Shown here in pieces: positions 3,033-25,129 of a DNA stretch of 64,000 bases (positions are counted from its first letter, which is position 1; each line of letters opens with the position of its first letter). A model generated the notes under the pieces. It was not told where the DNA came from and did no database searches. It was given only the letters and a program-made list of their open reading frames with translations. This DNA comes from Escherichia coli (GTDB lineage: Bacteria; Pseudomonadota; Gammaproteobacteria; Enterobacterales; Enterobacteriaceae). Both the position numbers and the translations under genes were made by a program. The stretch is taken from NCBI RefSeq assembly GCF_003334385.1, contig NZ_QOWN01000023.1, one strand, 5' to 3'.

Positions 3033-3396
<364 letters not shown>

Positions 3397-4062: not shown

Positions 4063-4074
4063 TAAAAAGAATTC

Positions 4075-4136
4075 AGAATCAGGCCGGAGTGCTAAATACT
4101 CCGTAAACACGGTCGTACATCCAGCCGGTAGCCTGA
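4075..4136 (+). other. Structured iscR-iscS intergenic RNA element (long-range dyad AATCAGGCCGG ... CCGGTAGCCTGATT with nested hairpins)
   Basis: Dyad symmetry read directly; consistent with the intergenic structure reported to stabilise the iscR fragment after RyhB-dependent cleavage of the isc mRNA. Confidence 0.45.
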
Positions 4137-4173
4137 TTCCTTGCATTGAGTGATGTACGGAGTTTATAGAGCA

Positions 4174-8621: not shown

Positions 8622-8957
8622 ATGCCAAAGATTGTTATTTTGCCTCATCAGGATCTCTGCCCTGATGGCGCTGTTCTGGAAGCTAATAGCGGTGAAACCA
8701 TTCTCGACGCAGCTCTGCGTAACGGTATCGAGATTGAACACGCCTGTGAAAAATCCTGTGCTTGCACCACCTGCCACTGCATCGTTCGTGAAGGTTTTGA
8801 CTCACTGCCGGAAAGCTCAGAGCAGGAAGACGACATGCTGGACAAAGCCTGGGGACTGGAGCCGGAAAGCCGTTTAAGCTGCCAGGCGCGCGTTACCGAC
8901 GAAGATTTAGTAGTCGAAATCCCGCGTTACACTATCAACCATGCGCGTGAGCATTAA
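8622..8957 (+). CDS. fdx: [2Fe-2S] ferredoxin Fdx
   Basis: 111 aa; cysteine cluster [12 protein letters not shown]. Confidence 0.95.
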
Positions 8958-8968
8958 CAGAGGTTAGT

Positions 8969-9169
8969 ATGGGACTTAAGTGGACCGATAGCCGCGAAAT
9001 TGGCGAAGCACTGTACGATGCGTATCCCGATCTTGATCCGAAAACGGTTCGATTCACCGATATGCATCAGTGGATTTGCGATCTGGAAGATTTCGACGAC
9101 GACCCGCAGGCATCCAACGAGAAAATCCTCGAAGCGATTTTGTTAGTCTGGCTGGACGAGGCCGAATAA
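8969..9169 (+). CDS. iscX: Fe-S assembly protein IscX (YfhJ)
   Basis: 66-aa acidic protein directly downstream of fdx. Confidence 0.92.
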
Positions 9170-9171
9170 TT

Positions 9172-9300
9172 TCCGCGTCATGCTTCACGCCGCAGATGCG
9201 TTGGCTGCGCTCGTTCACCCCAGTCACATAGTTATCTATGCTCCTGGGGCTTCACTCACTTGCCGCCTTCCTGCAACGCGAATCATTTAGCGGAAAAATC
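9172..9300. repeat. ERIC/IRU-like enterobacterial repetitive intergenic element
   Basis: Contains CTATGCTCCTGGGGCTTCACTCAC and, on the reverse strand, ATGTGACTGGGGTGAACGAGCGCAG, which match my memory of the ERIC1R/ERIC2 core consensus; boundaries approximate. Confidence 0.65.
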
Positions 9301-9346
9301 CTGGGGCTGCCAACTGGCGGCCCTTTTACAAAGAAGGATAACTAAA

Positions 9347-10630
9347 ATGACAGAAGCGATGAAGATTACCCTCTCTACCCAACCTGCCGACGCGCGCTGG
9401 GGAGAAAAAGCAACTTACAGCATTAATAATGACGGCATTACCCTGCATTTGAACGGGGCAGACGATCTGGGGCTGATCCAGCGTGCGGCGCGCAAGATTG
9501 ACGGTCTGGGCATCAAGCATGTTCAGTTAAGCGGTGAAGGCTGGGATGCGGATCGCTGCTGGGCATTCTGGCAAGGTTACAAAGCCCCGAAAGGCACGCG
9601 TAAAGTGGTGTGGCCGGATCTGGACGATGCCCAGCGCCAGGAACTGGATAACCGCCTGATGATCATCGACTGGGTGCGTGACACCATCAACGCACCGGCA
9701 GAAGAATTGGGACCATCGCAACTGGCACAGCGTGCTGTTGATCTGATCAGCAACGTCGCGGGCGATCGTGTGACTTATCGGATCACCAAAGGCGAAGATC
9801 TGCGTGAGCAAGGTTATATGGGGCTGCACACAGTCGGACGCGGTTCAGAACGTTCTCCGGTATTGCTGGCGCTGGATTACAACCCAACTGGCGATAAAGA
9901 AGCGCCAGTGTACGCGTGCCTGGTAGGTAAAGGTATCACTTTTGACTCCGGCGGCTACAGCATCAAACAGACTGCGTTTATGGACTCGATGAAGTCGGAC
10001 ATGGGCGGCGCGGCAACGGTTACCGGGGCGCTGGCATTTGCCATTACGCGCGGACTGAACAAGCGCGTGAAGCTGTTCCTCTGCTGTGCGGATAACCTGA
10101 TTAGCGGCAATGCGTTCAAGCTGGGCGATATCATCACCTATCGCAACGGTAAAAAAGTTGAAGTGATGAACACTGATGCCGAAGGGCGTCTGGTGCTTGC
10201 CGATGGTCTGATTGATGCCAGTGCGCAGAAACCGGAAATGATCATTGATGCGGCGACCCTCACCGGGGCGGCGAAAACTGCGCTGGGTAATGATTATCAC
10301 GCGCTGTTCAGTTTTGACGATGCGCTGGCCGGTCGCTTGCTGGCGAGTGCCGCGCAGGAGAACGAACCGTTCTGGCGTCTGCCGCTGGCGGAGTTCCACC
10401 GCAGCCAGCTGCCGTCTAACTTTGCCGAACTGAACAATACCGGAAGCGCGGCGTATCCGGCAGGCGCGAGCACGGCGGCGGGCTTCCTGTCGCACTTTGT
10501 TGAGAACTATCAGCAAGGCTGGCTGCATATCGACTGCTCGGCGACTTACCGTAAAGCGCCGGTTGAACAGTGGTCTGCGGGCGCTACGGGACTTGGTGTG
10601 CGCACGATAGCTAATCTGTTAACGGCGTAA
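9347..10630 (+). CDS. pepB: Peptidase B (M17 leucyl aminopeptidase family)
   Basis: ORF 9260..10630; start at ATG 9347 ([10 protein letters not shown]) for 427 aa; M17 motif NTDAEGRL. Confidence 0.93.
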
Positions 10631-10638
10631 ACTAATAT

Positions 10639-10736
<98 letters not shown>

Positions 10737-10771
10737 TTTGCGCCCCGAACGTTGAATGAATTGTGGTTCTT

Positions 10772-23900: not shown

Positions 23901-25019
23901 ATGCATAACCAGGCTCCAATTCAACGTAGAAAATCAACACGTATTTACGTTGGGAATGTGCCGATTGGCGATGGTGCTCCCATCGCCGTACAGTCCATGA
24001 CCAATACGCGTACGACAGACGTCGAAGCAACGGTCAATCAAATCAAGGCGCTGGAACGCGTTGGCGCTGATATCGTCCGTGTATCCGTACCGACGATGGA
24101 CGCGGCAGAAGCGTTCAAACTCATCAAACAGCAGGTTAACGTGCCGCTGGTGGCTGACATCCACTTCGACTATCGCATTGCGCTGAAAGTAGCGGAATAC
24201 GGCGTCGATTGTCTGCGTATTAACCCTGGCAATATCGGTAATGAAGAGCGTATTCGCATGGTGGTTGACTGTGCGCGCGATAAAAACATTCCGATCCGTA
24301 TTGGCGTTAACGCCGGATCGCTGGAAAAAGATCTGCAAGAAAAGTATGGCGAACCGACGCCGCAGGCGTTGCTGGAATCTGCCATGCGTCATGTTGATCA
24401 TCTCGATCGCCTGAACTTCGATCAGTTCAAAGTCAGCGTGAAAGCGTCTGACGTCTTCCTCGCTGTTGAGTCTTATCGTTTGCTGGCAAAACAGATCGAT
24501 CAGCCGTTGCATCTGGGGATCACCGAAGCCGGTGGTGCGCGCAGCGGGGCAGTAAAATCCGCCATTGGTTTAGGTCTGCTGCTGTCTGAAGGCATCGGCG
24601 ACACGCTGCGCGTATCGCTGGCGGCCGATCCGGTCGAAGAGATCAAAGTCGGTTTCGATATTTTGAAATCGCTGCGTATCCGTTCGCGAGGGATCAACTT
24701 CATCGCCTGCCCGACCTGTTCGCGTCAGGAATTTGATGTTATCGGTACGGTTAACGCGCTGGAGCAACGCCTGGAAGATATCATCACTCCGATGGACGTT
24801 TCGATTATCGGCTGCGTGGTGAATGGCCCAGGTGAGGCGCTGGTTTCTACACTCGGCGTCACCGGCGGCAACAAGAAAAGCGGCCTCTATGAAGATGGCG
24901 TGCGCAAAGACCGTCTGGACAACAACGATATGATCGACCAGCTGGAAGCACGCATTCGTGCGAAAGCCAGTCAGCTGGACGAAGCGCGTCGAATTGACGT
25001 TCAGCAGGTTGAAAAATAA
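23901..25019 (+). CDS. ispG: 4-hydroxy-3-methylbut-2-en-1-yl diphosphate synthase IspG (GcpE)
   Basis: 372 aa; conserved position between rodZ and hisS; C-terminal Cys ligands ([16 protein letters not shown]). Confidence 0.95.
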
Positions 25020-25129
25020 TAACGTGATGGGAAGCGCCTCGCTTCCCGTGTATGATTGAACCCGCATGGCTCCCGAAACATTGAGGGAAGCGTTGAGGGT
25101 TCATTTTTATATTCAGAAAGAGAATAAAC

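Follow-up and report, generated by a model that had tools for sequence, protein, structure and literature searches.

An old ERIC copy directly after the iscX stop codon of Escherichia coli and its possible part in isc-pepB transcript processing

Introduction

What does a long palindrome do when it lies exactly where the last isc gene ends and shortly before pepB begins? The ERIC repeats, on which ERIC-PCR typing is built, have been on record since 1990-91. The element studied here is like the ERIC, IRU or RU-1 of E. coli (Sharples & Lloyd 1990; Hulton et al. 1991; Wilson & Sharp 2006) in its length, its core, its intergenic position, its multi-copy nature and its variability among strains. We analysed it in the window (the whole stretch of Escherichia coli DNA under study, 64,000 nucleotides) and at the same site in other genomes. 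The best explanation of the data appears to be an old, no longer mobile ERIC copy whose hairpin may tune the processing or stability of the isc-pepB transcript, and to this reading we assign a probability of about 0.6.

Results

The iscX-pepB spacer is 177 bp long, and its first 127 nt form an imperfect palindrome that starts on the first base past the iscX stop codon. The features of the locus, with the evidence for them in brackets, are as follows.

8622-8957, + strand: fdx
8969-9169, + strand: iscX (yfhJ)
9167-9169, + strand: iscX stop codon TAA
9170-9296, + strand: ERIC/IRU element, 127 nt (consensus match, nhmmer, K-12 identity, copy number)
9170-9195, + strand: left terminal inverted repeat (inverted repeat I1; helices 1-2 with compensatory changes between species)
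9218-9249, + strand: central core hairpin CCCCAG...CTGGGG (inverted repeat I2, fold, primer matches)
9271-9296, + strand: right terminal inverted repeat, AU-rich, as RNA CUGCAACGCGAAUCAUUUAGCGGAAA (inverted repeat I1)
9303-9327, + strand: GC-rich hairpin GGGGCUGCC-AACU-GGCGGCCCU (9303-9324) followed by a short U run, outside the ERIC (fold, conservation)
9347, + strand: ATG of pepB

An earlier note on this DNA had described a palindrome of about 127 bp at 9172-9300; the palindrome and its length stand, and its limits have to be moved to 9170-9296. The position that the note gave, after the last isc gene and before pepB, can be narrowed to the first base after the iscX stop, on the same strand as both genes. 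Both core motifs that it quoted are present on the minus strand, where CCCCAGGAGC is the reverse complement of 9240-9249 and GTGACTGGGGTGAACGAGCGCAG that of 9204-9226.

The note had also recognised the element as an ERIC, and had named an identity to the consensus under about 70% as the result that would speak against it. A gapless alignment to the published E. coli ERIC consensus (Wilson & Sharp 2006, taken from its reverse complement in Delihas 2007, PMC2759123, Table 1a) gave 105 identical bases over all 127 positions (82.7%). With this consensus, nhmmer returned one significant match from the whole 64-kb window, at 9170-9296 (E = 4e-23). The sites of the primers ERIC1R (9234-9255, + strand) and ERIC2 (9212-9233, - strand), whose sequences were checked against the literature, each match at 19 of 22 bases. 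The family is present in many copies, given that blastn of the 127 nt against 5,426 complete E. coli genomes found a median of 12 places per genome, mostly at 80-90% identity. Taken together, the consensus match, the nhmmer score and the copy number confirm that the imperfect palindrome at 9170-9296 is a true member of the ERIC (IRU) family, MITE-like and 127 bp long. Over all its 177 bp the spacer shows no difference from that of K-12 MG1655 (NC_000913.3, 2656359-2656535). The kind of element is already known, and since K-12 itself carries the same copy, there is no new kind of element here. Our search of the literature on iscX/yfhJ-pepB, which did not extend to the catalogue of Wilson & Sharp 2006, yielded no explicit mention of an ERIC at this place.

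Rfam has no ERIC family, and a search at its gathering thresholds placed no family over the element. In a relaxed search the RF02818 V_AS5 model aligned over its positions 1-129 to 9171-9295 of the minus strand (E = 8e-9). The element is not a V_AS5 member, because its score of 44.9 bits is far under the gathering threshold of 96; the full-length alignment of the model to an ERIC suggests instead that the V_AS5 entry is probably ERIC-derived, and it appears to represent an ERIC-derived Vibrio transcript. Weak Rfam matches of CssrA and Ysr49 also overlap the ERIC region. The only other nhmmer match in the window, a possible second ERIC at 42211-42290 (E = 0.12), was rejected as a chance match to non-palindromic sequence.

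The outer arms of the palindrome (9170-9195 and 9271-9296) are 26 nt long and 73% complementary. The inner arms (9218-9231 and 9236-9249) make up the core hairpin, which has an inner stem CATAG/CTATG and a loop at 9232-9235, and which overlaps both the ERIC2-like and the ERIC1R-like site. Folded as RNA, the 127 nt reach -42.7 kcal/mol (z -3.2) in the iscX sense (+ strand) and -64.8 kcal/mol (z -7.9) in antisense (- strand). The + strand corresponds to the orientation used by Delihas, and the - strand to the canonical orientation of Hulton and of Wilson and Sharp.

The ends and the loop stem set this copy apart from the E. coli consensus. The element ends in TT...AA where the consensus has TA...TA: the terminal TATA...TATA has become TTTCC...GGAAA by complementary changes, so that a TA target duplication is no longer recognisable. 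The stem of the central loop has also changed in a complementary manner (positions 59/70 and 62/67). The copy is old, and among the other copies in E. coli, which are 80-90% identical to it, there is no near-identical paralogue.

That presence of the element would vary among strains, as the earlier note expected, is borne out by the 39% of complete E. coli genomes that lack it at iscX-pepB. The alleles were counted in the 5,426 complete genomes.

Standard allele, 127-bp ERIC: 2,864 genomes (52.8%)
Long allele, 194-bp ERIC with a 67-bp internal insert: 425 genomes (7.8%)
Empty allele, 58-bp spacer: 2,137 genomes (39.4%)

Filled alleles of both lengths thus occur in 3,289 genomes. The long allele was confirmed at iscX-pepB in two loci (L001 and L007), where the insert sits in the right half of the ERIC (L001:846-912; same site in L007) and consists of four consecutive small hairpins, GGCC-TTTT-GGCC, CCCC-TTT-GGGG, CAGCGC-AA-GCGCTG and AAAACGC-AA-TGCGTTTT. 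The position of the insert is also occupied in E. whittamii and in Leclercia, which carry the 67-bp module together with the 425 E. coli genomes; the window has the standard form without it. The yjfN-bsmA ERIC of strain D8 (L008:280-480) contains related modules in its left half as well as in its right, and in S. arizonae (L085) the insert is another one and sits elsewhere in the element. Sharp and Leach reportedly described long ERICs with an internal insert of some 70 bp in 1996.

Filled and empty alleles are not a clean insertion/excision pair, and have to be regarded as distinct haplotypes. The empty allele differs from the filled one in the stop codon (TGA vs TAA), in the linker and in the stem and loop of the downstream hairpin, and its tail is 9 nt longer. 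When the empty strain a7 (L002) was compared with the filled allele, 0 of 754 positions differed in pepB and 7 of 748 upstream, three of these in the last 10 nt of iscX. Such different haplotypes on near-identical flanks therefore point to two old spacer haplotypes that are shuffled by recombination, and not to recent insertion or excision. In the empty E. coli haplotype the hairpin reads GGTAGCCC and the tail GTTTTGCTGTTAAACGAATAAGG (L002:749-806, L003, L009), and its spacer is closer to empty spacers of Citrobacter (L024, L028, L029) than to the filled E. coli haplotype. These comparisons hint that the empty haplotype may be old or imported, with very short recombination tracts.

A scan with the IscX protein in one genome per species gave 80 loci, whose spacers were measured and scored for ERIC. 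An ERIC at the same site, in the same orientation and placed between the iscX stop, which it directly follows, and the conserved hairpin, was found in eight genera, and the species with it include the following.

Escherichia albertii
Escherichia whittamii (long form)
Citrobacter youngae ATCC 29220
Kluyvera genomosp. 3
Enterobacter asburiae
Enterobacter sp. ENT03
Leclercia adecarboxylata (long form)
Salmonella enterica subsp. arizonae (different insert)
Two Raoultella species (more diverged)

Internally deleted remnants were seen in S. diarizonae, Kluyvera genomosp. 1 and Klebsiella indica, and apparent remnants in Siccibacter and one further Enterobacteriaceae genome. Most other sampled genera have a spacer of 49-71 bp without ERIC. 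The comparison of this site across E. coli and Salmonella that the earlier note had proposed thus finds it filled, long or empty in E. coli, filled in S. arizonae and reduced to a remnant in S. diarizonae. Ten derived positions, at which the sequence departs from the E. coli consensus, are common to all eight non-Raoultella orthologues, among them four complementary pairs (13/115, 19/109, 59/70 and 62/67), which indicates a single origin without later homogenisation by other copies.

Serratia species also have ERICs in the iscX-pepB spacer. They lie downstream of the hairpin, in both orientations (+ in L014, L048 and L052; - in L072 and L084), and retain consensus-like ATAC...GGGTATA ends; they are independent insertions. 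Since these insertions are independent and occur in both orientations, the iscX-pepB spacer seems to be a recurrent ERIC target.

The ERIC copy evolves more slowly than the coding sequence on its flanks. Identities to E. coli were as follows.

ERIC in Citrobacter, Kluyvera, Enterobacter, Leclercia and S. arizonae: 86-90%
ERIC in Raoultella: 67%
Raoultella ERIC, paired columns: 83%
Raoultella ERIC, unpaired columns: 48%
Coding sequence on the flanks as a whole, non-Raoultella genera: 79-83%
Four-fold degenerate sites of fdx, iscX and pepB, non-Raoultella genera: 47-52%
Spacer 3' of the ERIC, with the conserved hairpin and the Shine-Dalgarno: 61-76% (66-76% in non-Raoultella genera, 61-76% in Raoultella)

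When E. coli is compared with the seven non-Raoultella orthologues outside Escherichia, the unpaired columns of the ERIC are also conserved, at 79-91%. The paired columns show covariation in excess of chance. When the consensus row is included, 12 of 35 pairs are double-changed, against 4.1 +/- 1.4 in shuffles (0 of 500 reach 12) and 1-3 in slid controls. With the orthologues only, there are 17 double-changed cells (5.0 +/- 1.8 in shuffles, reached by 0 of 500) and seven double-changed pairs, a number reached by 6 of 500 shuffles, with 0-2 in slid controls. The compensatory changes in the stems indicate that the hairpin is maintained. Template-switch correction in a DNA palindrome can likewise produce double changes with no selection on the RNA, and both RNA selection and DNA-level correction from arm to arm fit the covariation data. 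A comparison of G.U with A.C intermediates between the strands by strict i-to-(128-i) pairing was uninformative, because the palindrome has offset bulges, and the asymmetry in minimum free energy was used instead. The orthology, the slow evolution, the compensatory changes and the allele frequencies appear to agree with published views of ERIC evolution.

The hairpin at 9303-9324 that follows the ERIC recurs at 78 out of 79 enterobacterial loci, and its stem variants are compensatory. A simple terminator scan missed the 9303-9327 structure, whose U run is too short for the scan. It is native to the end of the isc genes and is probably a leaky terminator or attenuator, or else a stabiliser of the isc transcript; read-through would fit its weak U tract. 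In the fold predicted for the filled Escherichia allele, the linker AUCCU (9298-9302) pairs with AGGAU (9335-9339), the Shine-Dalgarno of pepB, which would lengthen the downstream hairpin at its base; neither the empty allele nor other genera have this pairing, and, being of only 5 bp, it may be due to chance. An anti-terminator was considered from a complementarity of 9 nt between 9200-9208 (left arm of the ERIC) and 9306-9314 (5' arm and loop of the downstream hairpin), and was rejected, as about two such matches are expected by chance over a region of this size (an estimate) and the match is not conserved beyond Escherichia.

Discussion

An E. coli iscR mutant derepresses yfhJ(iscX)-pepB-sseB together with isc (Giel et al. 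2006, as cited in PMC4055776). In a Yersinia iscR mutant, nearly equal fold changes were reported for fdx (10.9), iscX (10.8) and pepB (10.1) (PMC4055776). Given that iscX, pepB and sseB are co-expressed with isc, the ERIC is most probably transcribed in a polycistronic RNA, and would thus be part of the isc-pepB mRNA. According to reviews of De Gregorio et al. 2005, Yersinia ERICs at the 3' ends of genes are co-transcribed with them, and the ribosome opens the hairpin, so that an RNase E site in the 3' arm is exposed. The same reviews report that RNase E cleavage at stop-adjacent ERICs of Yersinia lowers the upstream transcript relative to the downstream one, in an orientation-dependent manner.

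The iscX-pepB copy has the orientation of ERICs that are fused in frame to the 3' ends of genes. In the A/B scheme of ERIC orientations it may thus belong to class B. It is like the stop-adjacent 'B-oriented' ERICs of Yersinia enterocolitica (De Gregorio et al. 2005) in that it lies directly past a stop codon, within a unit that is probably co-transcribed, and has an AU-rich right arm. It differs from them in that a separate conserved hairpin follows the element. Other families of small intergenic palindromes, the REP/BIME elements and the Correia elements (NEMIS) of Neisseria, are also co-transcribed and affect the processing or stability of mRNA; their sequences are unrelated to ERIC. REP units are of about 35 nt, and Correia elements are RNase III substrates with IHF sites or promoters.

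If the Yersinia model applies, the ERIC would be transcribed inside the polycistronic mRNA and fold into a long hairpin. A ribosome terminating at the iscX stop could open the terminal stem, because the base of the hairpin starts 1 nt after the stop. The opened stem would expose the AU-rich right arm and the linker (about 9280-9302) between the two hairpins, and the right arm (9271-9296) would be a candidate RNase E entry site. The likely outcome would be a modest, non-essential tuning of the ratio of isc to pepB-sseB mRNA, or of their stability. The adjacency to the stop, the orientation and the AU-rich right arm and linker between the hairpins lead us to hold this mechanism the most likely one. 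The influence on 3' processing of the isc transcript or on pepB expression that the earlier note suggested is a reasonable idea, in line with the published model for Yersinia.

Two observations speak against a role as RNA. The hairpin of the iscX sense is the weaker of the two, by the folding energies given above. In addition, 39% of E. coli genomes and most sampled genera are without the element, and it is internally deleted in several others; it is therefore dispensable.

A rival reading is a functionless relic of a selfish MITE, whose palindrome is kept by DNA-level template-switch correction between the arms and which is slowly being lost by deletion. In its favour are the empty spacers of 2,137 of the 5,426 E. 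coli genomes and of most genera, the internally deleted remnants of S. diarizonae, Kluyvera genomosp. 1, Klebsiella indica and other genomes, and the lack of conservation of the internal ORF; nor do G.U intermediates clearly outnumber those of the A.C type on the transcribed strand. Against it, the unpaired columns too are conserved, at 79-91% in the seven non-Raoultella orthologues, as compared with about 50% identity at neighbouring four-fold sites, and correction from arm to arm is insufficient as an explanation for this. In Raoultella, moreover, the contrast between paired (83%) and unpaired (48%) columns looks like selection on structure. We consider the relic a possible but doubtful account of this copy.

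The likeness of the copies across genera might also come from recent horizontal spread, or from repeated insertion of one ERIC subfamily at a hot spot past the iscX stop. The site does attract ERICs, as the independent insertions of Serratia in the same spacer and in both orientations suggest, and the copies of Kluyvera and Salmonella are alike. The filled and empty haplotypes of E. coli are sharply bounded on near-identical flanks (0 of 754 differences in the pepB of strain a7), and therefore short-patch recombination does happen at iscX-pepB. However, the adjoining spacer is only 66-76% identical to E. coli in the non-Raoultella genera and has genus-specific linkers and hairpin loops, which makes the transfer of whole spacers unlikely. 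The copies cluster roughly by taxonomy (Escherichia; Enterobacter with Leclercia; Raoultella), and a near-identical paralogue of the E. coli copy is lacking, the others being 80-90% identical. Common descent of the copies is thus preferred, and spread or repeated insertion appears improbable.

A role at the level of DNA or translation, whether in starting pepB transcription as a promoter, in ending transcription as a terminator, in encoding a small protein or in masking the ribosome-binding site of pepB, is very hard to credit, for although there is a 36-codon ORF at 9180-9290 and the predicted AUCCU-AGGAU pairing with the Shine-Dalgarno, a consensus scan of 8900-9500 found no promoter-like or terminator-like site, the ERIC hairpin has no U run behind it, the ORF, rejected as protein-coding, is broken by a frameshift or a stop in four of the 10 orthologues (those of Kluyvera and Leclercia and the two of Raoultella), and the 5-bp pairing lies outside the ERIC, is Escherichia-specific and is at chance level for its length.

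An old ERIC copy that tunes the isc-pepB transcript is accordingly the reading that we prefer. A stronger form of it is that the element has been exapted as a structured RNA, under purifying selection since before the split of Escherichia, Salmonella, Citrobacter, Enterobacter and Raoultella, and sets the balance of isc against pepB-sseB; this we put forward only tentatively. If it were true, the 127-bp, 194-bp and empty alleles would be heritable expression variants of an Fe-S assembly operon, and the three E. coli alleles would amount to a natural experiment on the long-unsettled function of ERICs. The value of the locus lies in the combination of orthology across genera, slow evolution, compensatory stems and three common alleles in E. 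coli, and the iscX-pepB spacer offers a convenient site at which to test the effect of an ERIC hairpin on mRNA processing in E. coli.

Other repeats and RNAs in the window

A REP/BIME-like palindromic repeat lies at 10637-10739, directly 3' of pepB, and a spurious ORF (10644-10988) runs through it. The repeat matches 'RU-3' of O157:H7 EDL933, which was described at the same place (Delihas 2007, PMC2759123). Elsewhere in the window, Rfam assigned three tandem copies of the REP-derived naRNA4 (3093-3346), the iscRS stability element (4063-4172), ryfA with IS128 (11547-12190) and sroE (25019-25110).
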